In this document: positions 1 to 42,624 of the stretch, in pieces
How positions within the stretch are numbered: position 1 is the stretch's first letter
Layout: the number at the start of each line of letters is the position of its first letter
IMG/VR virus record: IMGVR_UViG_3300018428_002561
Source of the DNA: an uncultured virus (IMG/VR IMGVR_UViG_3300018428_002561)
Lineage: Duplodnaviria; Heunggongvirae; Uroviricota; Caudoviricetes
Reading direction: 5' to 3' (one strand)
Length of the DNA: 64,000 nucleotides
Notes under the pieces: model-generated
Told to the model about the DNA's origin: nothing
Database searches by the model: none
Seen by the model: the letters and a program-made list of their open reading frames with translations, nothing else
Made by a program: the position numbers and the translations under genes

Positions 1-1
1 G

Positions 2-3000
2 CAATGACAGTATAAAGTACTCGCCTGAAACTCTATCAAATTTCATTTGAACATTTAGTGTTCTAACAACAGTTTCACCAATTTGTGCAGACGCAACGGC
101 TGTTGTAGAATCATCTGCACCCGAACCTGATATTGTTACAGTTGGTGCGCTTAAATATCCAGATCCTGGATTAGTTACTATAATTTTAACTACTTTTCCG
201 GCGCCTAAATACGCTCTTGCTGTAGCGCCGGTTCCGCCGCCGCCGGTAATTGTAACAGTTGGAGGAAATGTATATTTGCTACCTCCATCATAAATGTTAA
301 TACCTACAACTTTAAATCCATTATTATCTTTCCAATTTTTTGCAGGATACTCGTCAAAGAATGCATCAACACCGATAATTTCATTATCAATAACTTTAAC
401 AGGTTTTGTCTTAATTGCATTTTCACTAAAGTCATAGAATGGTGGTAAATCAAAATCTGCTGTAACTGTATTAGTATTTTCTAACTTATCATAAGAGCTT
501 ACATATTCTCTAATATTAGTTTTGTAAGGTTTAACTTCTCTAATATAATCATTGTAACTACTTAAATTATCATTTTGATAATTAATTTTTTCAGTTAAGC
601 CGCCAACATTATGTTTTGCTTTAACAAAACTAGTTTTGTAAACCCAGTCAACATTTTGCTGTTCAGATAGTACATATCTTATACTTGCAAAGAATAGTTC
701 TTGCCATTTAATTTTTAAGTCATCAACAAAAATGTCATTCTTCAAAGCTTCTAATATTTTTCTTGCTTCTGTAACAGGCTCTGTATCAAAGAATCTATTA
801 TCAAAACCTAATAAATCATAACCAACTGTATTTTCTACAACATCGTAAAGTTTGCTACTGATTTCTATAGTGCCGTTTTGTCTACCTATAGTTTCATAAT
901 CAATTGTATAATCAGCACTGTTAGTATTCTTAATACGTTTAAGTAAGAGCCAACCGCCTGTTCCGATATTTGCAATTTTAACAATTTGTCCGATTTTTGC
1001 GTTTGCCGATAAAAGCTGATAACTTTCATCAACACGATGATCAATTCTAGTAAACTGATTAGTGTTAGGTGCATACCAATCAATATATTTCCAATATGCT
1101 GTTGTATCAAAACTTGAAGACAATTTTCTGTCCCATAAGCCCGAAGTTGCATTCCAACTGTAAATAGCCCACTTATTATCAACAGTAATGTCATTTTCTA
1201 CATAGATTGATACAGGTCTAACGGTAATAACAGTGTTTTCATCGTACCCTGTGCCGCCATTAATTATGTTTACTTTGTTAATTTGTCCTAGTGGATTAAT
1301 TTCTAAATTAAAATCTAAACCAGTACCTTTACCTACAACAGTAAAACTAGGTCCGTGTCTAACTGTTGAAGTTTCTATATTATAAGTAGGATCTGCATAT
1401 CCTCTACCTGTATTGATAATTCTGATATCAGTTACTACGCCGTTATGTACTGACGGTATTAAAGTTGCTTGTGCAATTTTGTTTGTACCAATAAATTGTA
1501 CTTCGTCCAAAGTGTCTACTTTGTAATCATAAAGTCTTTCAGTAACAAATGGAGGTTGATCAACGCTATTTAATGTGTCAAAACTAAAGTCATCAACAAT
1601 AATAGTTTCTTGCAAGGCAATATTAGCTCTTTCAATTACTTGCTTAAATGCTTCTTGTCTATTTACAAACCAACTTTGTCTAGGACTATTTAAATTGCCG
1701 TATTTGTCTGCAGGACTAAGTTCAGGATCAGGTACTGTACGACCCCTATCATCATAACCAATTAAACTATCAATCCATTTTCTTTCCAAATCTGCTCTAG
1801 GAACACTTGTTTCTAAACCTTCAGTGACCAATTGATATTCTAAATGTCTATTTTGCTCTTGTGTATCTTGCGTATAATAACTTACGTGCAGAGCTACTTC
1901 TTTATCTTTTATCAAACTTTCACCGTTGTAAATAACAAATCTGTTATCACTAAGTAGAGCAACAAACTGATATCCTTGTCCTCTTGGGTCTCCAATTAGT
2001 TTTGCAACTTCTGATGCCGGTAAACTTCTATCTTCTGTTGCGGGTATTGTTAATTTATTTTTTACCCAGAAGTAATATTTTGTATTAAAAGTTTTTGTTG
2101 CTGAATTATATGAAAGTTTTTGGCTATATGCATCTACACCATACTTAGATTGTCCGCTTATGCCTTGAGCGAAACCTCTAGCTGTATCTGCTAGTGTATC
2201 CCACTCATCTGGAGGAATAGAACTTTCTACCCACTCATAGACATCAACAGAATAGTTAGGAATTAATTTGCTCCAGTAGTTTGCTTGAGTGGCTACATCT
2301 TCTTGATATGCATTAAAGAATTTTGCGGTTGATAAATCCCACCACAATTTGCCCACATACTTTTCTTCCCAGTTGTCAGTTTCACTAAAGAAGTTTGGCA
2401 AACTTGTGACATTATATCTAGCTAAATCAATATTAGATTTAAATGTTAATTCTTGTTCAGCAGGTCCTGCTATCTTACCTTGCACAGGATCGATGTAATC
2501 AATGTATGATACTAATTTATCTGTAACAGTATTGTACAAGTAAACTGACTTAATTGCATTAACGTCTACAACATTGTTTGGTGTTCTAATAGTTGTCCAG
2601 GGTTTTTGATCAGCAGCAACCTTATAATCAACCCAACTACCAGGATTGATTCCTACTTCGTCTACATTAGGATCTCCAGGTATACCAACATATATGTGGT
2701 TTTTATTTGCTAACACTTGGTCGCCAAACCTACCTGCTTGTAATACTGTAGAATCACCGCCGTAGTCTAATTCTTCTCCAAGAATATATGCGTCTTTTAT
2801 AAACTGATAAAGTCTTACACTTCCGCTGTCTATTTTCTTATCCGGGAATGTTGTAAATGTTTCATCAAAGGATGTTTCGCCGCTATCAAAGGTTGTATTG
2901 GTTATTATATCTCCGGCGCCGCTACTTACAGCAATCAAGTCATTTGTTGCGGTAACTTTAATACCAAATCTTTCAGCAGGTGTTTTCGTACCTGACAATG

Positions 3001-6000
3001 TTTGGTGTAATTCATACTGTAATCCGTCTTTAGCATAAACGTAAACTTTACCTGCATGATATGCATCTTCACTGTTTTCAGGATCTCCAATAACAATAAT
3101 GTTTCCATTTTCAGATATATCTAAACTACTACCCCAACCAGTATTAGAAACTGGTGCAACAATAGTTTGACTTAAAACATATCTGTCATCTAGTATTCTA
3201 TAAATTAAAACTTTGTTATCTTGGTCAACTGATTCATCTGTAATAATACTCGTTACAAGAATTTGTCCATTTTCGCTAACTTTAACTTGCTTTGAAAAAT
3301 CAATGACTTGCTCGTTTAAATCGTCAAACACAGGATCATTGTAAATATTAACATCATTTGGAAGTGTTGGTAGATAATTTACTTGGTTGCCTAATATTTC
3401 CCATTTTAATAAATTTGTAGGAATAACATTTTTGTTAAAAGTCAATGCACTATACAACTGATTATCATATAATACAATTTCTCCAGTTTTGTAAATTGCA
3501 TCCGGAGTGTATGGTCCTCTATAATGAGGATTTATGTCAAGAGCAAATCTATATGTTTTTCCGTATTTGTCAGTACCGTGTTTAATTACGGTAAGATTTT
3601 CTTTAGACCCTACATAGAATCTATATAAATCTCCATCTTGGCTTACAGCAACTTGTTTACCTACATTGCTACCTGTTGAACTTCCAGGAATAGTATATGT
3701 TCCTTGATTTGTCCAAACGCTTCCTACACTACTAAAGATACTATAAACACCTTGATTAGTAGGTTTGCTATCTGTTGATCCTGATGTATCTACAGGAAGA
3801 TTGTAAACAAGTCTCCAGTCACTATTAGATGTGCTAGGTATGCTTGCTTGGGCTTCTGCTCCTGCTTCTGTTAAATTTTCTTTGTATATCCAAAACTCTT
3901 TGTTTACATATGCAAAAGTATTTAGATCAGCAAACTGTTCCAATCCACCATATGATTCAGGATGTGCAGGAAACGGTGTTCCCCTTTCCATTACAGCAAT
4001 TTTTCCTGTATTTGATCCTGTTAAAGAAATTTTATTAATAGGTCCCATAATACGCAAGTTTGCTTGCGGTGGATTTCCTTCTTGTGTTTCTAATAGCAAT
4101 CTATTACCTTGTGTAAAGTTTCCTGTAACTTCTTTAAGATATACTCTACCTTGGTTAATATTACGTCTTATATAATATGCTACTCGACCTCTTGCACCGG
4201 TGATCTCATCTCTAATAAAATCACCATCAGCTCCGCCTATGTTTACAATATTTCCTAATGTGTCTGTAAATACTTTACCCTCGTATGCAGGCTCAAAGAA
4301 GTCACCAACATCAGTATCTTGGTCTGATAATATATCAATATCTGCTGTTTGGAATTTTGTAAATGTAAAGTCAATATATCCTTCCCATACATCAATAACA
4401 GTATGCAAGTTATCATTTAGATAAGATGCTTCGATGCCAAGTAATGATTCGTCAACTGGATCTGCTTGGTCGTCGATAGCAACCCTAAACTGATCACCTG
4501 GTTGGTTAATTTCTCCAGCAAGCGTAGGTGGAACTCGCATTAGCCATCTTGGATCTAAAATATTTTGAATGCCGTCAACATCTTCGTTAATGTATGCTCC
4601 GCCTCTATGAGATAATATTCCAATAAATCCAGGTTCATCTCTATCTGGGAATAACGTACCATTTACATCATTAAGAATATTTTTATAAAAATTAGGAATT
4701 GTTCTTGCATAGGAATCAGTATTTTCATCATAAACTAGTATATCTCGATACACTAAGCCATAAGCAGGAACACCATAATCTTTTGTTTCTGTAAATTCGT
4801 CTGACGTAACATATGTACCATTAGTATTGATATACCACCAGCCACCGATGCCGCCTGATGTACCATTAAAATTAGGTTGGGTATATGTACCAATTTCAGT
4901 ACCTGCAGCATTTGATATTGTGCCGTTTTCTGTAAATACACCATTAGTGTCTTTAGTATAAATTACTAATTTAAAATCTCTTGTAAATGTTTTGAAAACA
5001 GTTGCAGAGCCACTAGGTGTTGAAATAACATCACCTTCTTCAGGCGGGTCTGTATATGGTTCAAGTAGTAATACACTATCAACCTTTTCAATAATTTCAT
5101 GTTCGCCGTCTATAAAAGAGCCACCCGGTTCGTTGTATTGTGCTTGCACATTTTGCGAATTGATTCCTGTGGGGAATAGTTCTACTGAAGTATTTGGTCC
5201 TTCATTTCTATTAAAGTTTGTATAAAAATTCCAATTTAGAACAAGTTTATCTTTTACTTTAGTGCCTCTATATTGATCAAAAGGCGCAGCTATTAATAAG
5301 TGATCTGTTTCGGTATTAGGTAAGTAAGGACTTCCTTGTAAAACTAATGTAAGTAAACTACTATCACTTTGTCTTTCTAAATTTGTATAGCTATCAAATG
5401 TACTAAATGCAACACTACTACTTTCTGGAGTAATAGTTCTTATAGACTTCCAATAGTTTTCATTAAACTTAACAATATCATTTTCGCTATATGCTGAAGT
5501 TTTACTATAATCTCCTTTATAACTAGATGCAACTCCACTTGCTGTACTAGATCCTACTATAATAAACTTTCCATCGGGGCTCATTGCAACACTTGCACCA
5601 AATCTATGATCGTCATCCATTGGATACAATGCTGTATCTAAATCTAATTCAGATTCGTATAAGAAATTGCGTAAATTTGACCCTCTTTGATAGGTATAAA
5701 CTTTACCCTTATTATTATTTGCACTGTGATCTGCTATTGCTATTCTTGTATTAGCACTATTCACAGTCATTTCTGAACCAAACTCGTAAGTACTGGAAGG
5801 ATCGTAATTTGCAGGGTTATTATAGTGATCTGCATCTAAAAATGCATCAGTTCTTTCAGCAACAAGCCAATCTTTAGTAGTTCCGTCTATCCAAATCTTT
5901 TGTTGATTTGCAACTCGATCTTCCATTACATAATTTGCATTTTTAACTGTATCAAATTTGACTGATCTTAATTTACTGATATATCCGTCTACTTCTTCTA

Positions 6001-9000
6001 ATGCTTCTATGCTTTGATTTGCACTAGCAAATACATCAATTTGTGTAGGTCTAACTGTTTCTATAATGTAAAACGCATCATTTGCTGTTGAAGTGTTAGA
6101 TACTCCTATAATATCGCCAACCTTAAATGAATGTGCTTTATTAAGATAGAAAGTACCTCCAGGATTTGCAGGTAATTCTCGTGCATCAGCACTTGCACTA
6201 AATGCTTCAATTTTAGTAACTCTTATATCTGTAGTAATATGCTGTACTACATCCCAGTCTCCAGTTTTTCCTGTTATCCATATATAATCATTTGCGCCTA
6301 TTCTATCAATATTTGCTGTTAATATATCATTTCTGTCGTTAATTCTGTAAACTACATCACCTTCGTAAACATAACCAGCATCTCTTGTGTATTGATTATA
6401 AAGATCTACTACTGGAAATGGTTTATGATCGTAGTTTTGAGGCTTTTTATATATGTCACTAGGAGTTAGTTTATAAATAGTGTCGGTATCGTTAGCCGGT
6501 TTACTTAACACAAGCTCTATAGGCTGTGGATTAGTTTTTATTTCTGCTTCGTCAATTAGAAATTCTACTTCTTCAAAGTTATCTGTAGCACCATATTGTC
6601 CTAACCTAATAGCCCATTCTTCATAAAACTCTAAACTTTCTTTATCTGCGCTTGCTAAAGCATCAAACAGTTTTGTTAAACTATTTTTTGTTCCTTTATC
6701 TTGCAACATGCCTTGATAAAATTTATATTGACTTACATCATCATTAATAATATTTTCAAGATACTTACGTTTTTGATATCCTATTAAATGCTGAGCATGT
6801 TTTTGCTGTTCAATATCAAAATTATCTGTATCAAGATCATAAAAGTCAGCAAACTGATTAACTTTATATTCAAAGTTTGTTAATAGTTTAGATTCTGGTC
6901 TTTCACTTAATCTTTCCCATTGATTATCGATGAATACTTCTGTGCCACTGATATTGTTAGTTGCTACATAGTAAAATTCTTTGTACTTAATTAGTTTGCC
7001 GATACCATAATCTTTCCAAGGTTCCCAATCTCTTACTTCAGCTTCATCATAAATGAATCCTGGAATATTAAGGCCACCGCTCCAGTTGTCACTTCTATAC
7101 CCTGTAACCTTTATACGTTCTTGTCTATAGCCCGCTTCTTGATCATAAATTACATCACCAAACTCTGTTACGTTGTCTAAAAGAATTACATGTTCTCGTT
7201 GTACTAACGGCAAACGTATACTATAAATGCCATCTGCTGTATTTTTTACAGACAACCCAAAATCATTTTCACTGTCTCGTGCAATGCTACTAAACGATCT
7301 GTCTAATTTTCTGCCGTCGGCCTTTAATAAACTATAATCATAAAAATCATCAAATATATTATCAACTACATGATAGGGTTTATTAAATTTAATTTGTTGA
7401 GCACCAGGACTAATCGTAAGCACACTTCCTGCGGCCCAATTTTGTGTAGTCCAGAACATAAATTCTTTAACACTAAATGTCCAGTCCTCAACTATTTCGA
7501 TATCATTATTATAATATTCAAATATAAATCCTTGTGCTTTTAAATATGCTTCATATCCTAACAAGAAGTCTACAACCGCTTGTACACTATTAAGTTGAGT
7601 TCCATATGATATTGTTTTAACACGGTTAGTAAATTTACGTCTTAGAACACTATCTCTACCGCCTACTTGTGGCAATGCAGCAAGTTTAGACATTTTATCA
7701 TCTGCAAATGTTGTTCCACTAACATGACTTTCTTTCACTCTATAAAAGAAACTATCAAACCTAACATTTTGTCCTTTAATATATTGCTTTCCATTATCCC
7801 AATCTACAAATGATTCCGATATGCCTCCAACATTGATACTAGGATCTGATTGTGTTTCAATTGCTTCAAAATAATCAAACGAACTTTTAGCCTGATCGTA
7901 TCCTTTTATAATAAATCCGCCAGTTGCTTTTTCAATAACAACACCACTGTAGTTTGCAATAGTTACTGGAGTAGAGGTATTTAAAAATAATTTGTAGTTT
8001 TCTGGTGGAACAAATACATTGCCTTCATTTAGAGGTGTTCTACTATCTAAAATTAATTTAAATTTACTTTTATCAGTAAATCCTCCAACTTTTAATGCAA
8101 GTTTATTTTTTAGAGTAGTTAATGTATTTTGATATTCGTCATAATTTGTGTTTATATCACTTACAATATAATTGTAAATGTAGTTTACTAATCCAGAAGT
8201 TATGACACGCTGATTATCTGTATATGTATTTGGAAATACCAAATCTCTTAATCTTAAAATAGTATTTGACTCACTGTATACAATGTTGCCTACAGCATTT
8301 CTTGACATTCTTGATAAATCATAGCCTAGTCCGATTACTTTTGCTGGTTGATTTAATATCCAAGATGTAATTAACGCAAATGGATATTCACTACCACGTC
8401 TCCATGCTGTTTCAGTAGGTGTTTCGTCGCCAAATGTATATGCATCTCTAGCTCTAATAGCAACATAATTTTTTGCATAGTTGCTATCTAACGGACTTAA
8501 AAGTTTTCCGTTGGAATCTACTGGAATATGATTTAGTAAACCTGGTCTTTTGTATTTAGAATTTACTACTGTAGGTACGCCAGGTTGGCGAATTACACCA
8601 TTTTGTAAATCTTCCCATAATACAAAATTGTTGGCTGTGTAGGGTGCCGGCCCGTATACTTCTTCCCACCATTTTGGTTTAATTGTAAAGCCGAGCATTT
8701 CCCAAGGATGAGTATGAGGACGATCTGTATCATAAGCATCTTTATAAACAGCTCTCCAAAAACCTGGTAATTTTTTACCAGTAGGTGAAGACATATTTTT
8801 ATAATTGTATCTAAATGTAAAAGTGTCTTTATAAAAATCGTTATTGGTATAATTAGGATCGCCTGCGATAACAGTCCATTGTACAAAATCAGATACCATG
8901 CCTGTATCTATGTTTGCTCTTTCAAATCCTGTGTCTCTATAGTTTCCGCCTACAAAATCATGAATATTAAAAATATCAGGATTATATTCTTGCTTTAAGT

Positions 9001-12000
9001 TATTGTAAACTCTTCTTTCAAATTCTAATATTAAATCGTCTCTAAAATCGTCATATGCAAACACAATACTACCGTCGTGTCCTTGAATAACTTTTCTAGG
9101 TGTTTCATAGGTATCGTCGATAAAAATTTCTGGTTTGTACTTAGGATACAGTCCTAACTTTGTAGGAGTTGCAGGAACAAAACAACCGTCTGTTGTATCG
9201 TATTCGTATATTTCAAGCTCGTCTCCTACTTGTAAAGTTGTAAGTACTTTTACGAAACCTTCTTGTGTAAACTCGTAATCTGAGCCGTAACAAAGAGATT
9301 TACCATTTAGGTAAACCATTACGCTTCTGTTACTTAATTGGTCTAAGTCAAAGTATTCTGATAATGCAAAAAATTCGCTATCACTTGCTCTTACAATATG
9401 AGTTGTGCCTTTTGATGCACCATGTGGTATCATATCTGAAAAGTAAAATGGCATACCTTCAGTTTTTTGACTATTAATTTCTGCTATAATGTTATCAACA
9501 TGTTGTTTTATTGGACCGTCATATCCTAAATTTTCAGCAACTTGAATAAACAATCTTTTAAACTTTGCGTATTCTAATCTTGCATATTTTAATGTCTTTA
9601 TAATGTTTGCGTTTTTATCTGTAAGATGATAACTTGCAAGAGCAATTGGGCCAGTATGTTTAACAAATCTTGTTCCGTTTTTAACAATAAACCCTAAGTC
9701 TCTTAGGTTGCTTGATCCTGGAAAAATGTTTCCATTATAATCAAAGGTATTTTCTATTATTGTACCTACATGGTCATTTACTTCTGCAATAGTAAAATCT
9801 TTAATATTTTCGTTTAAAGGATTTCTTTCTAAATTATAAGCAAGTTCATAATACCCATTTTGATTAGATGGTGTCTTAGAAAAACATCTTAAAATTAAAA
9901 TATCTCCAGTTTTAAGATTATCAGTAAAAGTAATATACGCAATACCATTAATTCTGTTGATAGTATAATGTACTTCTTCTTTCCTAAAGTAACTATTAAC
10001 ATAAACTTTTACTTCTAAATCATTTAAGTCACCACTACGGTCAAATACATCTACAGCAAAATCATTAAGTTGATCTTCTACATCATATTGTTTAATTACA
10101 GCCTGTTTACTAAGTTGATTTGCTTTTTCCCAACCATTTTTACTTTTAAAGTTCGTAATATTACTGTACTGTCTCAAGTAACCCGTTTCTGTATTGACTT
10201 TAATTTTTTCGTTATCTTGTTCGTATACAAAGGCATCAGTTACTAGCGGAAAATTAAATTGTATATCACCAAAGTTTTCTATAGCTCTGTATGAAAGAGG
10301 GAATCCTAATTCACTGTCGTTAGTACCAGTTCCAATCTTGTAAGCAAAAAGTTCTGTTCCTGCAAATGTTGATGCATTATAAGTTGAAAAACTATTTCCC
10401 ATTGTATCAAATACATCGAACTTTGGTTGTTGGTTAACCTTTACTTTTTCTTGTGATGCAACCCACGATGTTCCGTCGAAGTAAAATAATTTACCTTTGT
10501 ATATGTCTCCGCTTTTAACTAGAACAGTTTCATTTTCGGTTGGTATTGCATCATCATCTTCAATTAAACTTATTTGCCTTATATTGTCAATTAAAATAAA
10601 TTTAACTTTGTAAATTTTTCCTCTAACAAGACGGTCAGTATCTGCATTAAAAATAACACGCATTCCGTCTGCAAGATTTACATTATCAATATTATAACCT
10701 GTAGAACCTTCTACTGTACTAAAAGCATCAGTAGTTTTATAATCAATTAAGTCTACATCATGTTTTGCTTGAGTACCATAATTAAATAATTTTAGTCCTG
10801 CATTAAATTCAATAATTGGCCTTGACGCCCTAGCAGATTGATCAATACTAGGAACACTATCATTATATTCTGCTGACTTTTCTATAACATCTCTATGGAA
10901 CCATTTGTTATATCTTGACCATGCATTTCTATCAGGACTAGCTCTATTAATTACAATATAATCTTTTGTTTCTGCAAAGGCACTAGCATTACCAAATGGC
11001 AATCTATCAAATCCTTCGCTGTCAAATGGTACTAATTTATTTCCGACATAACTGGCAGGAATAACTAAATCTAATTCGTTAATTAATCTAATGCTTTCGC
11101 CTACACCTTCTACAAAAAATTCTTTATCTTTGTAAAACTCAGGAGTTACATTTCCAGCAAATTTTATTTTTAGTCCATTTGATAATGCAACCTTGTTAGC
11201 ACTTGTATATTGCTTTTTACCAACAATTTCGTTAACATCTATTGATGTATTTTCAATTATATCAAATACTTTAATATACCCACTTGTGTTTATATCACTT
11301 TGGCTTACATAATATAATTGATCAGGTGCATTATACGGAACGGTGAATGTAATTTTACCTTGTTCAACATTAACTGGGTCAATTTCATTACCTTCTAAAT
11401 CAACGGCTGTAATTCCTTGAACATATAGGCTAGAAATATTTTCAGAATCTCCAGATATAACTTTATAACTTCCGTCATTTTGTTTTTCAAGTGTAAACGG
11501 AGCATCTGAAAATCTTCTGTTAGTAGAAAACGAAAATGGATGGCCTTGAGTATCAATATCAAATGTATAAGTTTGTCCTCTGTATAATGTTAAAGCAGGA
11601 TTAGGTTCAAATCCTGGAGGATCAAATTTATAAACTGTATTGTCATCTTGTACTTCAGTAGTTACTGTGTAAGTACTAGTTTCATCTTCCGACTTGCCAA
11701 AAACTGTTACAGTTTGAGGGCCATTAGGTAGCCAATAGTATTCTCTAAAGTTTGTAAATTTATCAAAACAAATATTAGGGTTCCAAGCATAGTATTCTTG
11801 GCTATTCATTAAACTATGATTAGCATTACTACCATTAAAGTTTTTAATTTGGTTTACATAGTCTGCATAATCAGCATAAAAATTTACATTACCTAAATCA
11901 TCTACAGATACTGTGGCCGGTTCTAATTGCCTATTTTGTCGTTGTACAGTTACATCTTCTATGTAAGTATCATTAAGCCTATGAGCTTTAGAATTTTTTC

Positions 12001-12181
12001 TGCCCATATAGCCATTAACTTTTTCTGCTGATCCAGGTTGTACTAACTGATCTAATGTACTAGATAGAATCTTTTTATTTGCTTGCGTTCTAAAATACTT
12101 AGGTAAGAGATCAGTGCTTTTTCTTTTCTCTTGATCGCCTGTTGGCAATGGTGATTCTGTCTGATCGTTATCGTAAGCCAT
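2..12181 (-). CDS. Giant baseplate/virion structural protein (gp7-like wedge position), >=4060 aa, 3' end runs off the window
   Basis: Not in the ORF track because it has no stop in the window. ATG at 12181-12179 overlaps the gp6 TAA (TAATG). Starts MAYDNDQTESPLPTGDQEKRKSTDLLPKYFRTQANKK and the same frame still reads LNVQMKFDRVSGEYFILSL at base 2. Contains propeller-blade-like motifs (HRFGASVAMSPDGKFIIVGS, GWGSSLDISENGNIIVIGDP) and NPGSGY..PTVTI/GGGG repeats. The gp7 label rests on position only. Confidence 0.8.
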   Translation of the reverse strand, partial: MAYDNDQTESPLPTGDQEKRKSTDLLPKYFRTQANKKILSSTLDQLVQPGSAEKVNGYMGRKNSKAHRLNDTYIEDVTVQRQNRQLEPATVSVDDLGNVNFYADYADYVNQIKNFNGSNANHSLMNSQEYYAWNPNICFDKFTNFREYYWLPNGPQTVTVFGKSEDETSTYTVTTEVQDDNTVYKFDPPGFEPNPALTLYRGQTYTFDIDTQGHPFSFSTNRRFSDAPFTLEKQNDGSYKVISGDSENISSLYVQGITAVDLEGNEIDPVNVEQGKITFTVPYNAPDQLYYVSQSDINTSGYIKVFDIIENTSIDVNEIVGKKQYTSANKVALSNGLKIKFAGNVTPEFYKDKEFFVEGVGESIRLINELDLVIPASYVGNKLVPFDSEGFDRLPFGNASAFAETKDYIVINRASPDRNAWSRYNKWFHRDVIEKSAEYNDSVPSIDQSARASRPIIEFNAGLKLFNYGTQAKHDVDLIDYKTTDAFSTVEGSTGYNIDNVNLADGMRVIFNADTDRLVRGKIYKVKFILIDNIRQISLIEDDDAIPTENETVLVKSGDIYKGKLFYFDGTSWVASQEKVKVNQQPKFDVFDTMGNSFSTYNASTFAGTELFAYKIGTGTNDSELGFPLSYRAIENFGDIQFNFPLVTDAFVYEQDNEKIKVNTETGYLRQYSNITNFKSKNGWEKANQLSKQAVIKQYDVEDQLNDFAVDVFDRSGDLNDLEVKVYVNSYFRKEEVHYTINRINGIAYITFTDNLKTGDILILRCFSKTPSNQNGYYELAYNLERNPLNENIKDFTIAEVNDHVGTIIENTFDYNGNIFPGSSNLRDLGFIVKNGTRFVKHTGPIALASYHLTDKNANIIKTLKYARLEYAKFKRLFIQVAENLGYDGPIKQHVDNIIAEINSQKTEGMPFYFSDMIPHGASKGTTHIVRASDSEFFALSEYFDLDQLSNRSVMVYLNGKSLCYGSDYEFTQEGFVKVLTTLQVGDELEIYEYDTTDGCFVPATPTKLGLYPKYKPEIFIDDTYETPRKVIQGHDGSIVFAYDDFRDDLILEFERRVYNNLKQEYNPDIFNIHDFVGGNYRDTGFERANIDTGMVSDFVQWTVIAGDPNYTNNDFYKDTFTFRYNYKNMSSPTGKKLPGFWRAVYKDAYDTDRPHTHPWEMLGFTIKPKWWEEVYGPAPYTANNFVLWEDLQNGVIRQPGVPTVVNSKYKRPGLLNHIPVDSNGKLLSPLDSNYAKNYVAIRARDAYTFGDETPTETAWRRGSEYPFALITSWILNQPAKVIGLGYDLSRMSRNAVGNIVYSESNTILRLRDLVFPNTYTDNQRVITSGLVNYIYNYIVSDINTNYDEYQNTLTTLKNKLALKVGGFTDKSKFKLILDSRTPLNEGNVFVPPENYKLFLNTSTPVTIANYSGVVIEKATGGFIIKGYDQAKSSFDYFEAIETQSDPSINVGGISESFVDWDNGKQYIKGQNVRFDSFFYRVKESHVSGTTFADDKMSKLAALPQVGGRDSVLRRKFTNRVKTISYGTQLNSVQAVVDFLLGYEAYLKAQGFIFEYYNNDIEIVEDWTFSVKEFMFWTTQNWAAGSVLTISPGAQQIKFNKPYHVVDNIFDDFYDYSLLKADGRKLDRSFSSIARDSENDFGLSVKNTADGIYSIRLPLVQREHVILLDNVTEFGDVIYDQEAGYRQERIKVTGYRSDNWSGGLNIPGFIYDEAEVRDWEPWKDYGIGKLIKYKEFYYVATNNISGTEVFIDNQWERLSERPESKLLTNFEYKVNQFADFYDLDTDNFDIEQQKHAQHLIGYQKRKYLENIINDDVSQYKFYQGMLQDKGTKNSLTKLFDALASADKESLEFYEEWAIRLGQYGATDNFEEVEFLIDEAEIKTNPQPIELVLSKPANDTDTIYKLTPSDIYKKPQNYDHKPFPVVDLYNQYTRDAGYVYEGDVVYRINDRNDILTANIDRIGANDYIWITGKTGDWDVVQHITTDIRVTKIEAFSASADARELPANPGGTFYLNKAHSFKVGDIIGVSNTSTANDAFYIIETVRPTQIDVFASANQSIEALEEVDGYISKLRSVKFDTVKNANYVMEDRVANQQKIWIDGTTKDWLVAERTDAFLDADHYNNPANYDPSSTYEFGSEMTVNSANTRIAIADHSANNNKGKVYTYQRGSNLRNFLYESELDLDTALYPMDDDHRFGASVAMSPDGKFIIVGSSTASGVASSYKGDYSKTSAYSENDIVKFNENYWKSIRTITPESSSVAFSTFDSYTNLERQSDSSLLTLVLQGSPYLPNTETDHLLIAAPFDQYRGTKVKDKLVLNWNFYTNFNRNEGPNTSVELFPTGINSQNVQAQYNEPGGSFIDGEHEIIEKVDSVLLLEPYTDPPEEGDVISTPSGSATVFKTFTRDFKLVIYTKDTNGVFTENGTISNAAGTEIGTYTQPNFNGTSGGIGGWWYINTNGTYVTSDEFTETKDYGVPAYGLVYRDILVYDENTDSYARTIPNFYKNILNDVNGTLFPDRDEPGFIGILSHRGGAYINEDVDGIQNILDPRWLMRVPPTLAGEINQPGDQFRVAIDDQADPVDESLLGIEASYLNDNLHTVIDVWEGYIDFTFTKFQTADIDILSDQDTDVGDFFEPAYEGKVFTDTLGNIVNIGGADGDFIRDEITGARGRVAYYIRRNINQGRVYLKEVTGNFTQGNRLLLETQEGNPPQANLRIMGPINKISLTGSNTGKIAVMERGTPFPAHPESYGGLEQFADLNTFAYVNKEFWIYKENLTEAGAEAQASIPSTSNSDWRLVYNLPVDTSGSTDSKPTNQGVYSIFSSVGSVWTNQGTYTIPGSSTGSNVGKQVAVSQDGDLYRFYVGSKENLTVIKHGTDKYGKTYRFALDINPHYRGPYTPDAIYKTGEIVLYDNQLYSALTFNKNVIPTNLLKWEILGNQVNYLPTLPNDVNIYNDPVFDDLNEQVIDFSKQVKVSENGQILVTSIITDESVDQDNKVLIYRILDDRYVLSQTIVAPVSNTGWGSSLDISENGNIIVIGDPENSEDAYHAGKVYVYAKDGLQYELHQTLSGTKTPAERFGIKVTATNDLIAVSSGAGDIITNTTFDSGETSFDETFTTFPDKKIDSGSVRLYQFIKDAYILGEELDYGGDSTVLQAGRFGDQVLANKNHIYVGIPGDPNVDEVGINPGSWVDYKVAADQKPWTTIRTPNNVVDVNAIKSVYLYNTVTDKLVSYIDYIDPVQGKIAGPAEQELTFKSNIDLARYNVTSLPNFFSETDNWEEKYVGKLWWDLSTAKFFNAYQEDVATQANYWSKLIPNYSVDVYEWVESSIPPDEWDTLADTARGFAQGISGQSKYGVDAYSQKLSYNSATKTFNTKYYFWVKNKLTIPATEDRSLPASEVAKLIGDPRGQGYQFVALLSDNRFVIYNGESLIKDKEVALHVSYYTQDTQEQNRHLEYQLVTEGLETSVPRADLERKWIDSLIGYDDRGRTVPDPELSPADKYGNLNSPRQSWFVNRQEAFKQVIERANIALQETIIVDDFSFDTLNSVDQPPFVTERLYDYKVDTLDEVQFIGTNKIAQATLIPSVHNGVVTDIRIINTGRGYADPTYNIETSTVRHGPSFTVVGKGTGLDFNLEINPLGQINKVNIINGGTGYDENTVITVRPVSIYVENDITVDNKWAIYSWNATSGLWDRKLSSSFDTTAYWKYIDWYAPNTNQFTRIDHRVDESYQLLSANAKIGQIVKIANIGTGGWLLLKRIKNTNSADYTIDYETIGRQNGTIEISSKLYDVVENTVGYDLLGFDNRFFDTEPVTEARKILEALKNDIFVDDLKIKWQELFFASIRYVLSEQQNVDWVYKTSFVKAKHNVGGLTEKINYQNDNLSSYNDYIREVKPYKTNIREYVSSYDKLENTNTVTADFDLPPFYDFSENAIKTKPVKVIDNEIIGVDAFFDEYPAKNWKDNNGFKVVGINIYDGGSKYTFPPTVTITGGGGTGATARAYLGAGKVVKIIVTNPGSGYLSAPTVTISGSGADDSTTAVASAQIGETVVRTLNVQMKFDRVSGEYFILSL

Positions 12182-23501: not shown

Positions 23502-23526
23502 ATGACTATTAAACTTGGAGAAACAT

Positions 23527-24387
23527 GTGCGATCTAGAAATTATTTAAACAACAAGGATATCTTATCAGAAATCCACAAATCAAAGAATACGTTTAATAG
23601 CTATATAGACCCAGAATACCATCAGTACGATATTATTCTTACAGATATAGAAAAGGTAAACAGATTAACTATTGCAGAAGCAAAAAGAAACAAAGCAAAG
23701 CGTCTAAGCAATGCAGACTACGAAACCCGCAAAATGGCCGGTGAAAAGGTAAAACAAGCAGATTGCGAAGTTGACTGGAAAAAGATTACAAAAGAAGAAC
23801 TAATCTTCCGTATTATGACATTTGATCATATTCCAGATGAACCTGGAAGAAAGAAAAATCCTAAAACTATAGCAGATCACAAGGTAAAATTAAATTTTCC
23901 TCCATTTCAACACTATAAATTTAACGAAAATGATGAACTAGTGTGTGTAGGCAAAAGTCATTGGCAAGGCGGCATGGAAAACGGACATTTTGATCATAAA
24001 CACGGTAAAGCAACTAACAAACTAGCAACTATGTGGTTAAAATTAGTTGATAGGTATGCAACTAGAGGTAACGTTAGAGGTTATACTTACAACGACGAAA
24101 TGAAGGGGCAAGCAATACTACAACTAGCACAGATAGGACTACAGTTCGATGAATCTAAAAGTAATAATCCTTTTGCTTACTATACCGCTGCTGTTACTAA
24201 TTCATTTGTTCGTGTCATTAATATAGAAAAACGTAATCAAAATATTAGAGACGATATTTTAGAGATGAACGACTTAAACCCATCATACACACGACAAGCA
24301 CAAGGTGAATGGGAAGCCGCTGTAAAAAGAAATGAAGAACTAAAAACTTCAATTTTCCAAGAAAGAAAAGTGGTTGACAAAGATTAA
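23527..24387 (+). CDS. gp55: Late-transcription sigma factor, T4 gp55-like
   Basis: NYLNNKDILSEI N-terminus and RGYTYNDEM...QFDESKSNNPFAYYT...SFVRVINIEKR motifs; lies upstream of gp47/gp46 as in T4. Start moved to GTG 23527, which has a GGAG SD; the ORF track uses TTG 23515. Confidence 0.85.
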   Translation: MRSRNYLNNKDILSEIHKSKNTFNSYIDPEYHQYDIILTDIEKVNRLTIAEAKRNKAKRLSNADYETRKMAGEKVKQADCEVDWKKITKEELIFRIMTFDHIPDEPGRKKNPKTIADHKVKLNFPPFQHYKFNENDELVCVGKSHWQGGMENGHFDHKHGKATNKLATMWLKLVDRYATRGNVRGYTYNDEMKGQAILQLAQIGLQFDESKSNNPFAYYTAAVTNSFVRVINIEKRNQNIRDDILEMNDLNPSYTRQAQGEWEAAVKRNEELKTSIFQERKVVDKD

Positions 24388-27446: not shown

Positions 27447-27896
27447 ATGGAGTGGACTTATAAAGGCAAAAAAATTGAAACCATACCAGAAGAATTTGAA
27501 GGCTTCGTATATCTAATAACGAATAAAAAAACAGGGCAAAAATATATAGGCAAAAAACTAGCAAAGTTTAAAACTACAAAGCCACCTCTTAAAGGCAAAA
27601 AGAATAAACGTAGAGGCTATAAAGAAAGCGACTGGAAAACCTATTGGGGTAGTTCTGATAGATTAAATGCAGACGTTAAAGCACTAGGCGAAAAAAACTT
27701 TACAAGAGAAATATTATACCTATGCAGAGGCAGGGGCGAAATGTCCTACATTGAGGCAAGAGAGCAATTTGACCGCCGTGTATTAGAGAGCGACGAGTAT
27801 TACAATGGAATTATTAATGTTAGAGTTGGCGGTTCCGATAAATTGCGCAAGGCTTTGCTAGAACACACCATTAAGGCAAAACAATCCAACACCTAA
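27447..27896 (+). CDS. Short stand-alone GIY-YIG family endonuclease
   Basis: GFVYLITN...KYIGKK, YWGSS, EARE and YYN motifs; 149 aa with no C-terminal DNA-binding extension. Confidence 0.8.
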   Translation: MEWTYKGKKIETIPEEFEGFVYLITNKKTGQKYIGKKLAKFKTTKPPLKGKKNKRRGYKESDWKTYWGSSDRLNADVKALGEKNFTREILYLCRGRGEMSYIEAREQFDRRVLESDEYYNGIINVRVGGSDKLRKALLEHTIKAKQSNT

Positions 27897-34818: not shown

Positions 34819-36567
34819 ATGAGCTGGAAGAAATATTTTACACCTGTACCAACAGGAAACAATGCAGACGGAAGTTACAGTCCTTTTGCTGGTTTAAATA
34901 GCGGATTACAGCCAGGTCCGGCGGCTAGAAACTATAACTCACACTTACCTGATGTATATGTTGGTAGTCCTAATCGTGTTGAACGTTATGGTCAATACAA
35001 CACAATGGACAGTGATTCGGAAGTCAATGCTGCACTAGACATTCTCGCTGAGTTTTGTACTCAAAAGAACGATCAAAACAATACAAATTTCTCTTTTGAG
35101 TTTAAAAATAAAGCAACAAATACAGAAATAACAATTTTACAAAAATATTTACAACAATGGTGTAAACTAAACAAGTTTGAAACACGTATGTTTAGATTAA
35201 TACGTAACGCTTTCAAATACGGCGATCAAATTTTTGTTAGAGATCCAGAAACTGCCAAACTTTTCCATGTTGATGCGGCCAACTTAACAAAAATTATTGT
35301 TAATGAGTCAGAAGGTAAAACACCAGAGCAATATGTTATAAAAGACTTTAATCTAAATTTTAAAGATCTTGTAGCAACAACACCACATCAAACAAATGGC
35401 CAAGTAAACAATGGCGGAATGGGTAGTCATCAAAGTGCAAGTGCTGGTAAAGGTTACATAGGAAGCCAATCTGCAAGTCAAGCAGGTACTAGATGGAGCA
35501 GAGAAGAAGCAGAAATTGCTGTTGATGCTAAACATGTAGTTCATTTAAGTATGAGTGAAGGTTTAGACAACAATTATCCATTTGGTAATTCTTTGCTAGA
35601 AACTATTTTTAAAGTTTATAAGCAAAAAGAACTACTTGAAGATGCAATTATTATATACAGAGTACAACGTGCTCCAGAAAGGCGTGTATTTTATGTTGAT
35701 GTAGGTAACATGCCTAGTCACTTAGCAATGCAATTCGTAGAAAGAGTTAAAACCGAGATCCACCAGAGACGTATTCCAAGCCAAACAGGCGGGGGTACGA
35801 ATGTTATAGACAGTAGTTACAACCCGTTAAGCATAAATGAAGATTATTTCTTTCCGCAAACAGCAGAAGGTAGAGGATCTAAAGTAGAAACGTTGCCTGG
35901 TGGTACTAATTTAGGTGAAATTGACGATTTACGTTACTTTACTAATAAGCTCGTGCGTGGTTTACGTATTCCGTCCTCATATTTGCCCACAGGTGCTGAA
36001 GATGCAAGTAGTCAGTACAACGATGGAAGAGTAGGAACAGCGTATATACAAGAATTAAGATTCAATACATATTGCGAACGCCTGCAAAACATGCTAATCG
36101 AAGAATTTGATCAAGAATTTAAAAAATACTTGTTAGAAAAAGGTGTAAATGTTGATACTTCAATGTTTGATCTTAAATTTCAACCTCCACAGAACTTTGC
36201 AGCATACAGACAAAGCGAAGTTGACAATGCTAGAGTACCTACATACACACAAATGAGTGCAATACCATATATTTCTAATAGATTTGCACTAAAAAGGTTC
36301 TTAGGCATGACAGAAGAAGAAATTGCAGAGAATGAACGTTTATGGCGTGAAGAAAATGACGAAAATCTTGAAACTCCAGCAACAGATGCCGCAGGAGAAA
36401 TGCGTAGTGGTGGTATTTCAGGAGCAGGAATAGATGCAGATATGGGCGGAATGGAAGATGTAGACGCATCTGTCCCATCAGAAGACGGTGGAGAAGGAAC
36501 TCCTCCAGAAACTACAACAGGCCAAGAGCTAGGCGCTAGTCCGGCAACTACAGACCAAACGGTATAA
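34819..36567 (+). CDS. gp20: Portal vertex protein
   Basis: LLEDAIIIYRVQRAPERRVFYVDVGNMP, EDYFFP...GRGSKVETLPGG.NLGEIDD. Confidence 0.96.
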   Translation: MSWKKYFTPVPTGNNADGSYSPFAGLNSGLQPGPAARNYNSHLPDVYVGSPNRVERYGQYNTMDSDSEVNAALDILAEFCTQKNDQNNTNFSFEFKNKATNTEITILQKYLQQWCKLNKFETRMFRLIRNAFKYGDQIFVRDPETAKLFHVDAANLTKIIVNESEGKTPEQYVIKDFNLNFKDLVATTPHQTNGQVNNGGMGSHQSASAGKGYIGSQSASQAGTRWSREEAEIAVDAKHVVHLSMSEGLDNNYPFGNSLLETIFKVYKQKELLEDAIIIYRVQRAPERRVFYVDVGNMPSHLAMQFVERVKTEIHQRRIPSQTGGGTNVIDSSYNPLSINEDYFFPQTAEGRGSKVETLPGGTNLGEIDDLRYFTNKLVRGLRIPSSYLPTGAEDASSQYNDGRVGTAYIQELRFNTYCERLQNMLIEEFDQEFKKYLLEKGVNVDTSMFDLKFQPPQNFAAYRQSEVDNARVPTYTQMSAIPYISNRFALKRFLGMTEEEIAENERLWREENDENLETPATDAAGEMRSGGISGAGIDADMGGMEDVDASVPSEDGGEGTPPETTTGQELGASPATTDQTV

Positions 36568-40387: not shown

Positions 40388-41566
40388 ATGATGTCAGAAC
40401 TATTAGAAAGTCGCTGGACAGAAACCAAAGACGCTCTTCTTGAAGGCCTGGACGGTAACAAGAAGGCGGTAATGGCTGCCACACTAGAAAACACTCGTAA
40501 GTATTTGTCTGAGAGTGCAACAGCTGGAGCAACATCCGCTGGTAACGTAGCTACACTAAACCGTGTAATCCTACCAGTTATCAGACGTGTTATGCCAACT
40601 GTTATTGCTAACGAGCTAGTTGGTGTTCAACCAATGACTGGCCCAGTTGGCCAAATCCACACTCTACGTGTTCGTTACGCTGAAGCTTTTGATAGCACAA
40701 GCGGAACTGATACTGTAGCAGGTGAAGAGGCACTTAGCCCATTCAAGATTGCGGAAGGATATTCCGGTGCAGCTGACGATAAAGCCGCTACAACAGCAGC
40801 TTTAGAAGGTCAAGCTGGACGTAAATTGTCCATCCAAATCTTAAAGCAAACTGTAGAAGCTAAATCCAGAAAGCTATCAGCTCGTTGGACTTTTGAAGCT
40901 GCACAGGATGCACAATCAATGCACGGTATTGATGTTGAAGCAGAAATTATGGCTGCATTAGCACAAGAAATTACCGCTGAGATTGACCAAGAAGTTTTAG
41001 CAAGCCTAAACAGCCTAGCTGGTAATGCTGCTGAAACATATGACCAAAGTGCTGTATCAGGTACAGCAACATTCGTTGGTGACGAGCATGCTGCATTAGC
41101 TGTTCAAATCAACAGAGTTGCAAACTTGATTGCACAGCGTACACGTAGAGGCGCAGGTAACTACGCTGTTGTTAGCCCATTTGCGTTAACAATTCTACAA
41201 AGTGCTACAACTTCTGCGTTCGCAAGAACAACTGAAGGTACATTCGAAGCACCAACTAACACTAAAATGGTTGGTACATTGAATAACGCAATGAAAGTGT
41301 ACGTCAACACATACAGTGCAGACGATGCACCAGTACTTGTTGGTTATAAGGGTTCAAGTGAATCAGACGCACCAGCGTTCTATTGCCCATACATTCCACT
41401 AATGTCAAGTGGTGTTGTGCTTGATCCAGCAACATTCGAGCCAACTGTGTCATTTATGACCAGATATGGTTACGTTGAGCTATCAAACACAGCTTCATCA
41501 CTTGGTAACGCAGCAGATTACTTAGGTAAAGTTGCGATTACTAACGGAAGCGTGAGCTTTAGCTAA
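40388..41566 (+). CDS. gp23: Major capsid protein
   Basis: VIRRVMP..IANELVGVQPMTGPVGQI, AKSRKLSARWTFEAAQD, FYCPYIPL, FMTRYG; start could be 40391. Confidence 0.97.
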   Translation: MMSELLESRWTETKDALLEGLDGNKKAVMAATLENTRKYLSESATAGATSAGNVATLNRVILPVIRRVMPTVIANELVGVQPMTGPVGQIHTLRVRYAEAFDSTSGTDTVAGEEALSPFKIAEGYSGAADDKAATTAALEGQAGRKLSIQILKQTVEAKSRKLSARWTFEAAQDAQSMHGIDVEAEIMAALAQEITAEIDQEVLASLNSLAGNAAETYDQSAVSGTATFVGDEHAALAVQINRVANLIAQRTRRGAGNYAVVSPFALTILQSATTSAFARTTEGTFEAPTNTKMVGTLNNAMKVYVNTYSADDAPVLVGYKGSSESDAPAFYCPYIPLMSSGVVLDPATFEPTVSFMTRYGYVELSNTASSLGNAADYLGKVAITNGSVSFS

Positions 41567-41583
41567 GTTTTACTTAAAACGAG

Positions 41584-41612
41584 AAAATAGGGCCTTAGGG
41601 CCCTATTTTTTT
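41584..41612. terminator. Bidirectional intrinsic terminator between gp23 and pqqA
   Basis: AAAATAGGGCC-TTAG-GGCCCTATTTTTTT, with A and T tracts on the two sides. Confidence 0.9.
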
Positions 41613-41622
41613 GACTACGGTT

Positions 41623-41694
41623 TTACTTGTTCATTACATACATTGTAACTTCAAAGCCAAAACGCATTTCTGTATAGCTAGGTTTTGTCCACAT
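41623..41694 (-). CDS. pqqA: Coenzyme PQQ precursor peptide PqqA (23 aa)
   Basis: MWTKPSYTEMRFGFEVTMYVMNK*: W.KP leader and G.EVT.Y core with the E-x3-Y pair; AAGGAG SD 6 nt upstream; TAAATA at 41720-41715; terminator immediately downstream. Confidence 0.93.
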   Translation of the reverse strand: MWTKPSYTEMRFGFEVTMYVMNK

Positions 41695-41776
41695 AACAAT
41701 CTCCTTTCAATTATTATTTAAACACACTTTTTGACAAAAATCTTGCAGAAAATCATTAATTTTTCATAAAAAGTGG

Positions 41777-41804
41777 TTGACTTTTATTTTAAAGATGTTA
41801 TATT
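41777..41804 (+). promoter_or_regulatory. sigma70-type promoter pointing into a non-coding tract
   Basis: TTGACT, 16 nt, TATATT with TG extension; shares AAAAGTGGTTGAC-N13/14-TGTTATATTA with the gp47 promoter. Confidence 0.6.
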
Positions 41805-41810
41805 AATAAC

Positions 41811-42027
41811 ATAAGCAACAAAGACTTAGCTAGTCAATGTTTATAGTGCAAGGAAGAGGCGTTTACCAGAGCGTCGAACTTGACTGTTTAGGGGTGGTAC
41901 CCAGGTGTTGTACTGGAAACAGGCAATGTCACATCGCTCTACCGAGCGGAAGCAGGTTGTCGCGGAGATGAAATGGTATTTGGTCCGTGGCTTGTAGGTG
42001 TAACCGAGTCCTACCTATTTTGCTTAT
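41811..42027 (+). ncRNA. Candidate ~220-nt structured small RNA, family not recognised
   Basis: Bounded by a promoter and a terminator; 5' ATAAGCAA pairs with 3' TTGCTTAT; multiple internal stems; GC-richer than its flanks; no plus-strand ORF of credible size. Confidence 0.65.
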
Positions 42028-42031
42028 TCTT

Positions 42032-42060
42032 AAAGCCCGCCACTGTGCGGGCTTTCTTCT
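42032..42060 (+). terminator. Intrinsic terminator
   Basis: AAAGCCCGC-CACTGT-GCGGGCTTT followed by CTTCTT. Confidence 0.8.
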
Positions 42061-42168
42061 TATTTGATAAATACTTGTGTCAGATAGTGTGCCGCAAGGC
42101 GGACTTATGCTGTTACCCACAGCGTACCGGATAGAACCCGGATAGGACTACTTTATAGGAGAAAACAA

Positions 42169-42624
42169 ATGGGAAGACCACTTAATAAAAGATACTTTGG
42201 ACCTGCTACAGCAGGTGGCAATGAAATCAAAGTAGATTTCTATGATGGCACATCAGCTGTTCTAGAAGGCTACATTGTAAAACAATTAGGATCTAAAAAG
42301 TTTCGTGTTGCCGCAATTGGCACACCAGGAACTACATACGATCGTTTTTTAACTACAGGAAAATTACCTGCTGCTTTAACAGGCGAAGAAATGTGCATCA
42401 GTGTTAAAGGTGATGACGGTGAAACTTACGGCGTTAGTAAAATTTCAGGACGTAAGGCAACTATCATTGCTCACAGTGCAACAGGTTCGAATGCATTAAA
42501 CGGACAATCGATTCCATGGAACTTCACAGTAAGTGCTGTTGACGGTGCTGTACAAGTTGAAGAAGCTGGTGATGATGACGTACTACTTGGTACTGACGAC
42601 GACGACTTCACTGAAGACGCATAA
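42169..42624 (+). CDS. Virion structural protein (possibly head decoration)
   Basis: MGRPLNKRYFG...GYIVKQLGSKKFRV; late promoter core, strong SD, first gene after the capsid unit. Confidence 0.55.
   Translation: MGRPLNKRYFGPATAGGNEIKVDFYDGTSAVLEGYIVKQLGSKKFRVAAIGTPGTTYDRFLTTGKLPAALTGEEMCISVKGDDGETYGVSKISGRKATIIAHSATGSNALNGQSIPWNFTVSAVDGAVQVEEAGDDDVLLGTDDDDFTEDA

Follow-up and report, generated by a model that had tools for sequence, protein, structure and literature searches.

The window analysed here is a stretch of 64,000 nucleotides from G000, a linear IMG/VR virus record of 115,784 bp with 36.5% G+C and an estimated completeness of 31%. On its minus strand, convergent with the gp23-type major capsid gene (40388–41566, plus strand; PF07068, E 5e-98; phrog_138), lies a very short reading frame at 41623–41694 that runs from an ATG start through 23 codons to a TAA stop and encodes the peptide MWTKPSYTEMRFGFEVTMYVMNK. 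A Shine-Dalgarno sequence AAGGAG (41701–41706, minus strand) stands 6 nt before the ATG and can be aligned with the leaders of host pqqA genes; the 23-codon frame and ribosome site described in an earlier note on this DNA are thus both borne out. The frame is a genuine pqqA. Pfam model PF08042 (PqqA) matches the peptide along its entire 19 positions with 46 bits (E 4.5e-12, cut-off 21.1) and the NCBIfam equivalog TIGR02107 with 47 bits (E 1.5e-12, cut-off 20), and because both models score at more than twice their cut-offs the match stands above chance, which settles in its favour the identity that the earlier note had proposed to check by HMM. The cross-link residues E15 and Y19 are intact within E15-V-T-M-Y19, as fits the E-x3-Y found near the C-terminus of PqqA peptides of 20–30 residues. 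A single PqqA copy is present in the 115,784-bp contig.

The surroundings are those of a giant T4-like phage. Besides the capsid gene the window holds a T4-type portal (34819–36567), a gp55-like late sigma gene (23515–24387), gp20, gp21, a prohead protease, a scaffold, baseplate parts and gp46/47-like nuclease subunits, together with several fibre-like proteins of 1,846–2,000 residues. Phage structural genes (gp20, gp21, gp23, baseplate, fibre) flank pqqA, so that the locus belongs to a phage genome and not to host contamination. The stretch is present in twenty public runs (salt-marsh samples of 2018 and one marine sample of 2024), 8 of them metatranscriptomes; the runs were compared as contigs, so that depth cannot rank genes. 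One DNA-run contig spans 41254–41650 with 0 differences and possibly comes from the source sample.

A few other features of this genome deserve mention. The apparent ORF-free anomaly at 1–12180 (minus strand) was discarded, since a single 5005-codon ORF that continues past the window end (G000:C1:89624-104641) accounts for it; alongside this ORF are fibre-like proteins of 1846, 1884, 2000 and 2337 residues. Within the structural region, a tryptophan-halogenase-family protein (PF04820, E 1e-90) adjoins a 2OG-Fe(II) oxygenase and a methyltransferase-domain protein (G000:C1:21581-25361; L004 2581-6361), a combination that is unusual in phages. Between the gp46/47-like genes and unknown ORFs lies a gene for a segE-type GIY-YIG homing endonuclease (27447–27896, plus strand; PF19835, E 6.5e-35).

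Between the stop codons of gp23 (41566) and pqqA (41623) lies a two-way intrinsic terminator hairpin (41584–41609, both strands). Its RNA folds with −22.7 kcal/mol (z −5.3) on the plus strand, where it is followed by U7, and with −16.1 kcal/mol (z −4.2) on the minus strand, where the U-rich tail UUUUCUCGUUUU follows; 0 of 200 shuffles folded as well on either strand, in keeping with the bidirectional terminator common to both genes that had been claimed before. The hairpin belongs to the phage backbone, and relatives that lack pqqA have it too. RNA-library contigs that match the gp23 3′ end without error break off at 41580 (X9) and 41583 (X5), and a DNA contig continues to 41650, a weak hint that the hairpin ends gp23 transcripts. 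In three metatranscriptome runs the pqqA CDS has very high depth, but at the ≥90% likeness used for counting this depth takes in host and other-phage pqqA and cannot be assigned to the phage gene; the zero RNA cover of the phage-specific 5′ leader bin (41693–41753) is uninformative.

The gene is carried by a cassette of ~142 bp (41618–41759, minus strand) comprising an upstream box, a promoter-like element, the Shine-Dalgarno sequence, the CDS and 6 nt; the terminator hairpin lies outside it. In three relatives (L400, L410 and L419) the site is empty and window position 41616/41617 abuts 41760, which therefore identifies 41618–41759 as an insert of ~142 bp. Judged from its layout, the cassette is a self-contained inserted unit with a promoter-like element that we regard as a putative promoter, consistent with the ribosome site and promoter-like region of its own that the earlier note ascribed to pqqA. 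Its conservation next to gp23, which that note had proposed to look for, did not materialize. Considering the closest 80 of 598 capsid relatives (82–90% identical), 62 loci extend at least ~430 nt past the capsid gene, and only 4 of these 62 have pqqA within 1.5 kb of gp23; the gene is therefore dispensable for this phage type. Both orientations occur, G002 and G004 being convergent with the capsid gene as in the window and G005 and L425 co-directional with it. In the relative G001 (356,312 bp, 96% complete, capsid protein 85% identical), which has one pqqA, the gene sits 74 kb from the capsid gene. In DNA run X1, positions 41624 and 41768 are break points of contigs and of loose ends, and a single contig (depth 11) joins 41623 to 41768 on opposite strands, hinting at an inverted cassette variant in that sample.

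The slot as a whole (41617–41777) is variable: it is empty in the three relatives named above, occupied by pqqA in five contigs, and filled in L397, L398, L407, L408, L438, L446 and L460 by a small ORF whose leader (...gacggaagtagcataaagcgaaggaacgcac...) is conserved or by inserts of up to ~1 kb. Its right bound is a sigma-70-like promoter (41777–41804, plus strand; TTGACT, 16 nt, TATATT, with TG) that reads away from pqqA, and the pair GTTGAC...TATATT/TATAGT is retained in relatives with and without inserts. Directly after this promoter, and before a terminator-like hairpin (42032–42055), a full-length match to the manA RNA motif (RF01745; 41824–42024, plus strand) scores 47.4 bits, below the gathering threshold of 55.2 (E 4.8e-11). 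RNA run X10 contigs cover 41768–42008, and the manA-like stretch may possibly be a small phage RNA gene. Further on, the freshwater-2 RNA (RF02980; 42088–42171, plus strand) reaches 76.6 bits against a gathering threshold of 49.9, and its 3′ end includes AGGAG and the ATG of an unknown 151-residue ORF (42169–42624). The block 42049–42200 is common to many capsid relatives. This match places the freshwater-2 motif in a T4-like phage whose samples are salt-marsh and marine; a literature search under "freshwater-2" found nothing.

Phage morons and cyanophage auxiliary genes such as psbA offer a general parallel. The pqqA cassette resembles them in being host-derived, in having its own promoter-like element and a terminator, in being dropped between backbone genes and in encoding a component of host energy metabolism that is rapidly consumed. 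As expected of a moron, it is present or absent between the same backbone genes, and its promoter-like element lies inside the insert, with the terminator borrowed from gp23. It differs in that its product is a consumable biosynthetic substrate of 23 residues, neither an enzyme nor a structural subunit.

At the 5′ edge of the cassette stands the box TTAATGATT (41751–41759, minus strand), followed after 28 nt by the −10-like element TTTAAATAATA (41712–41722, minus strand), which contains TAAATA. The element overlaps the AATAAT of a sigma-70-like prediction (−35 TTGTCA at 41732–41737, 16 nt, AATAAT) that matches 10 of 12 consensus bases. The same layout of TTAATGATT, 28 nt and TTTAAATAATA recurs in four variants (window, G002/G004, G005, L425); TTTAAATAATA is identical in G002/G004, G005 and L425, and the 28 nt preceding it differ.

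How this region is read by RNA polymerase bears on the earlier note's proposal that pqqA has been rewired to late (gp55) control. The T4 late-promoter consensus is TATAAATA. Throughout the contig, ATAAATA occurs at 24 sites and 16 of 75 ORFs have one within 80 nt upstream, at distances of 4–56 nt and mostly 16–26 nt before the ATG, a distribution from which ATAAATA is likely the gp55-type late motif of this phage. Before pqqA stands instead TTTAAATA (41715–41722, 20 nt before the ATG), with TTAAATA, a form that has 44 sites in the contig and precedes genes at 2 of them; TTTAAATA itself occurs 21 times, and the sole occurrence before a gene is the one at pqqA. The statement that pqqA has the same TAAATA core as the structural genes is thus literally true, but the base that discriminates is missing. 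It is possible, though doubtful, that gp55-bound RNA polymerase transcribes pqqA from TTTAAATA as a variant T4-type late promoter. The element matches 7 of 8 bases of the consensus at a distance within the 4–56 nt range, sister contigs have no conserved −35 ahead of it, a gp55-like gene is present in the window, and in G003, a more distant T4-like contig whose capsid is 37% identical, pqqA is preceded at 28 nt by a perfect TATAAATA. Against late transcription speak the counts themselves (ATAAATA before genes for 16 of its 24 sites, TTAAATA for 2 of 44), the sigma-70-like pair overlapping the element, and the same distance from the box being kept by TATAAT or CATAAT in siphovirus-type contigs without gp55. 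Late control of pqqA is therefore possible in some lineages, given the G003 promoter, and unsupported in the window phage, where the rewiring claim found no backing.

Among the matches listed, the 120 nt ahead of pqqA contain TAATGATT in 30 of 118 viral loci versus 3 of 130 host loci. The methylotroph phages P19250A, MEP301 and Melnitz have TATAAT, CATAAT or GATAAT ~29 nt after the box and no good −35 between. Unrelated phages can be aligned only at the box and from about −12 onward, so that the box looks like a retained functional element and not the trace of a recent transfer. Two other origins were considered and dropped: a general phage repeat, for which the window has 3 sites of TTAATGATT versus 2.1 expected, and a common host motif, since three Methylophilaceae genomes have 2, 0 and 1 matches to TTAATGATTTTNYTG; both matches in Ca. 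Methylopumilus fall within called ORFs, and no ORF begins shortly after the remaining one. Some box copies contain an AATGA-N3-TCATT half-palindrome, which we take to resemble a Fur-type iron box. We can speculate, with little confidence, that a tiny cassette with its own promoter spreads pqqA among unrelated methylotroph phages and has a dedicated control box (~tTAATGATTTTaCTGATGg) at a fixed ~28–29 nt from a −10-like hexamer, missing from host pqqA promoters; the box would bind a host or phage factor and in this way tie precursor supply to a physiological signal.

The peptide is under selection in viruses. At least 120 IMG/VR contigs carry the FGFEVTMY pattern, and 112 of the 120 viral matches listed are exact 23-codon ORFs, which give 101 distinct sequences. 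Trp2, Pro5 and Arg11, none of them fixed by the search pattern, are invariant in these 101 sequences, with five codons used for Arg11 across the viral set (CGT, AGA, CGC, CGA, CGG) and four for Pro5. A second viral scan that fixed only W-T-x-P-x3-E-M-R-F-G-F found at least 120 loci, and all 120 listed have E-x3-Y followed by four residues and a stop. At closer range, the CDS of the sister contig G002 differs from that of the window at 1 of 72 bases, synonymously, and the flanks at 21 of 313. The positions that vary in phages (3, 4, 6–8, 20, 21 and 23) are those that vary among hosts, and the EMRFGFEVTMY core of the window peptide equals the host core.

These patterns weigh on two readings that would deny the peptide its usual job. 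A mere passenger, a host fragment captured not long ago that does nothing for the phage, would suit the presence of pqqA near gp23 in only 4 of 62 close capsid relatives and a slot in which many unrelated inserts are gained and lost. We find it highly improbable: the gene is found repeatedly in phage families that are unrelated, its copies differ by many synonymous changes and have frame, start and stop intact in 112 of the 120 loci listed, it has a phage-specific upstream box that is mostly missing from host copies, and it has been kept through relocation and in both orientations within the clade. The other reading, which the earlier note offered as a decoy or competitor, is that the phage peptide binds PqqD/PqqE without turnover and shuts host PQQ synthesis. 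Finding pqqA alone, without the enzymes, would agree with it, as would leader residues 6–7, which are Ser-Tyr in the window and Ala-Ala in the commonest host form among the matches listed. Nevertheless a decoy has no need of the cross-link residues, yet E-x3-Y is present in 120 of the 120 viral copies listed, which therefore speaks against a peptide that merely binds PqqD. The entire EMRFGFEVTMY core is moreover host-identical, phage-variable positions are the same as host-variable ones, and hosts themselves retain several orphan copies. The decoy is thus disfavoured, and we rate it very unlikely; a substrate-supplying role is the reading we retain.

Consistent with the stand-alone state of the gene, a Pfam scan of 34 window ORFs and 40 ORFs elsewhere in the contig found no pqqB-E and no PQQ-dehydrogenase gene. 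The absence of further pqq genes that had been noticed in the window therefore holds there and extends to the remaining ORFs of the contig, as the earlier note had suggested checking. G000, G001 and G002 are without pqqE above the cut-off and without a PQQ_2 dehydrogenase. A radical-SAM match in G001 was rejected as pqqE, its 22 bits being far under the 381-bit cut-off. The pqqC search of the same three genomes gave nothing above the cut-off, a weak negative since control genomes gave no signal either. With the contig 31% complete, pqq or methanol-oxidation genes could lie elsewhere in this phage. Neither in the window, nor in the contig, nor in G001 is pqqA at the head of a pqqBCDE operon, a position that is not universal for pqqA, given that hosts have 3–5 dispersed copies per genome. 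Among the viral matches listed, 0 of the 80 loci fetched with ±4 kb have pqqB-E beside pqqA; PqqB adjoins 45 of the 125 host pqqA loci listed, 73 of these loci having at least 1.5 kb.

The kind of peptide points to a particular host family. Searching one-genome-per-species bacterial contigs with the FGFEVTMY pattern returned at least 125 stretches, and among the matches listed the form ending ...TEMRFGFEVTMYVMNK comes from records titled Methylotenera, Methylophilus, Ca. Methylopumilus and Methylophilaceae, with a few labelled only Burkholderiales or Pseudomonadota; Methylococcales and Methylophaga pqqA, among the same matches, have other tails. The best host matches listed are identical to the window gene at 21 of 23 residues and at 63 of its 72 bases. 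Homology to host and viral copies reaches 12–25 nt upstream of the ATG, and ~40 nt in a few loci; since it extends past the start codon to host copies, the ribosome site arrived together with the gene. Residues 6 and 7, Ala-Ala in the majority of Methylophilaceae and of phage copies among the matches listed, are Ser6-Tyr7 in the window peptide, a difference that might bear on PqqD binding, and Ser6-Tyr7 is absent from the host VMNK-type copies among the matches listed. From peptide type and G+C content, the host is most likely a member of the Methylophilaceae, methanol-eating bacteria, so that the methylotroph host which the earlier note read from the EMRFGFEVTMY core is upheld and narrowed to a family.

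Methylophilaceae themselves have multiple copies of pqqA. Three of their genomes have 3, 4 and 5 dispersed pqqA copies, and the accessible part of Beck 2014 (PMC4109929) gives 3–12 pqqA copies versus a single pqqBCDEFG for chromosomes of the family; that hosts multiply pqqA alone fits precursor supply being limiting. The orphan host copies are of the same 23-residue type as the window peptide (up to 21 of 23 residues identical, among the matches listed), and each is a separate unit that has both a ribosome site and a terminator to itself. They differ from it in that their −10 is of the GCGCATAAT type and their leader is long, and the TTAATGATT box is mostly missing in hosts.

Viral pqqA is not new. 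PqqA was published in 2020 in the Lake Baikal virus population VP_266 (Coutinho et al. 2020, Microbiome 8:163, PMC7678222), an uncultured T4-like virus of ~35% G+C predicted to infect Methylophilaceae, where, according to the part of that paper available to us, it is read as an auxiliary gene boosting methanol oxidation and is accompanied by a methanol dehydrogenase gene. The novelty implied by the earlier note thus falls away, and the window pqqA is one more example of a published viral gene. Going by the same part of PMC7678222, the two cases agree in T4-like type, similar G+C, Methylophilaceae-type host, PQQ precursor and proposed role. They differ in origin, a lake there and salt-marsh and marine samples for the window stretch, and in the methanol dehydrogenase of VP_266, as no PQQ_2-type dehydrogenase was found in G000, G002 or G001. 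Cassette, empty sites, upstream box and gp23 adjacency are not described in that part of the paper. What is added here is the cassette, its empty sites, its two orientations and the upstream box.

The gene is also found in phages with known hosts. A tblastn search with the peptide against 50,697 GenBank phage records returned 12 records, 10 of them true phages: nine bear the name of a Methylophilales or Methylophilaceae phage (Venkman, P19250A, MEP301, MEP401, MEP402 and four Melnitz records) and the remaining one is an uncultured podovirus. "Acinetobacter phage MD-2021a" (CAKLQF020000010.1, CAKLQH020000055.1; L011) was dropped, its contigs being bacterial-chromosome-like, with fur, ppk and a complete pqqABCDE. 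The nine comprise siphoviruses, a Zobellviridae phage and Kyanoviridae myoviruses. Like the window phage, the cultured methylotroph phages (Venkman, P19250A, MEP301, MEP401/402 and Melnitz) have a stand-alone pqqA of 23–24 codons with the EMRFGFEVTMY core, which in P19250A, MEP301 and Melnitz is preceded at 63–89 nt by the TTAATGATT box. They differ in family and in neighbours, which in the small phages are those of an early or recombination region. Their pqqA is unannotated or an opposite-strand ORF is annotated in its place; for example, the "hypothetical protein" of Melnitz-1 (L010 2961-3056) and that of MW202481 (L002 3996-4124) are the opposite strand of the pqqA frame. A word search of four isolate papers of pqqA-bearing phages met with no mention of phage pqqA.

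Taken as a working host-gene copy captured from Methylophilaceae, pqqA is probably an auxiliary metabolic gene, kept because it provides PQQ synthesis with its consumable substrate. A giant T4-like phage would have captured it from that family, and the ~142-bp cassette is inserted in a variable slot reaching from the capsid terminator to a conserved rightward promoter; the pqqA transcript would end at the two-way hairpin of the capsid gene. Once expressed, the peptide would be handed to host PqqD/PqqE/PqqB/PqqC, which would link Glu15 to Tyr19 and convert one peptide into one PQQ. PqqA is the sole part of the pathway to be consumed, so that its supply by the phage may keep PQQ-dependent (XoxF/Mxa-type) methanol oxidation, hence the energy of the cell, running during infection. 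The expression of the gene and its timing, the processing by host enzymes and the benefit to the phage are what this scheme would presuppose. PQQ is a stable periplasmic cofactor, which may lessen the need for new synthesis within one infection.

The substrate might also be supplied for another purpose, that is, for other quinoproteins or as an antioxidant and not for methanol oxidation. Such a use would sit well with a contig that has no link to methanol dehydrogenase and with the absence of PQQ_2 from G000, G001 and G002. We consider it unlikely, because every cultured host of a pqqA-bearing phage is an obligate or specialised methylotroph, to which the peptide type also points, and because the Lake Baikal virus, in the accessible part of PMC7678222, pairs PqqA with methanol dehydrogenase. 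Maintenance of methanol oxidation accordingly stays our preferred purpose for the gene.

As viral cargo, PqqA is unusual: not an enzyme but a 23-residue raw material for a cofactor, spent one-for-one. It is nearly always missed in annotation or called on the wrong strand, and it would make a cheap host marker for methylotroph phages, while the cassette, its empty sites and the upstream box offer handles on the movement and control of a small gene. The presence of pqqA in all returned Methylophilales/Methylophilaceae phage records and in at least 120 viral contigs points to the supply of the precursor as a limit on PQQ-dependent methanol oxidation in abundant aquatic methylotrophs, a limit that phages may exploit.
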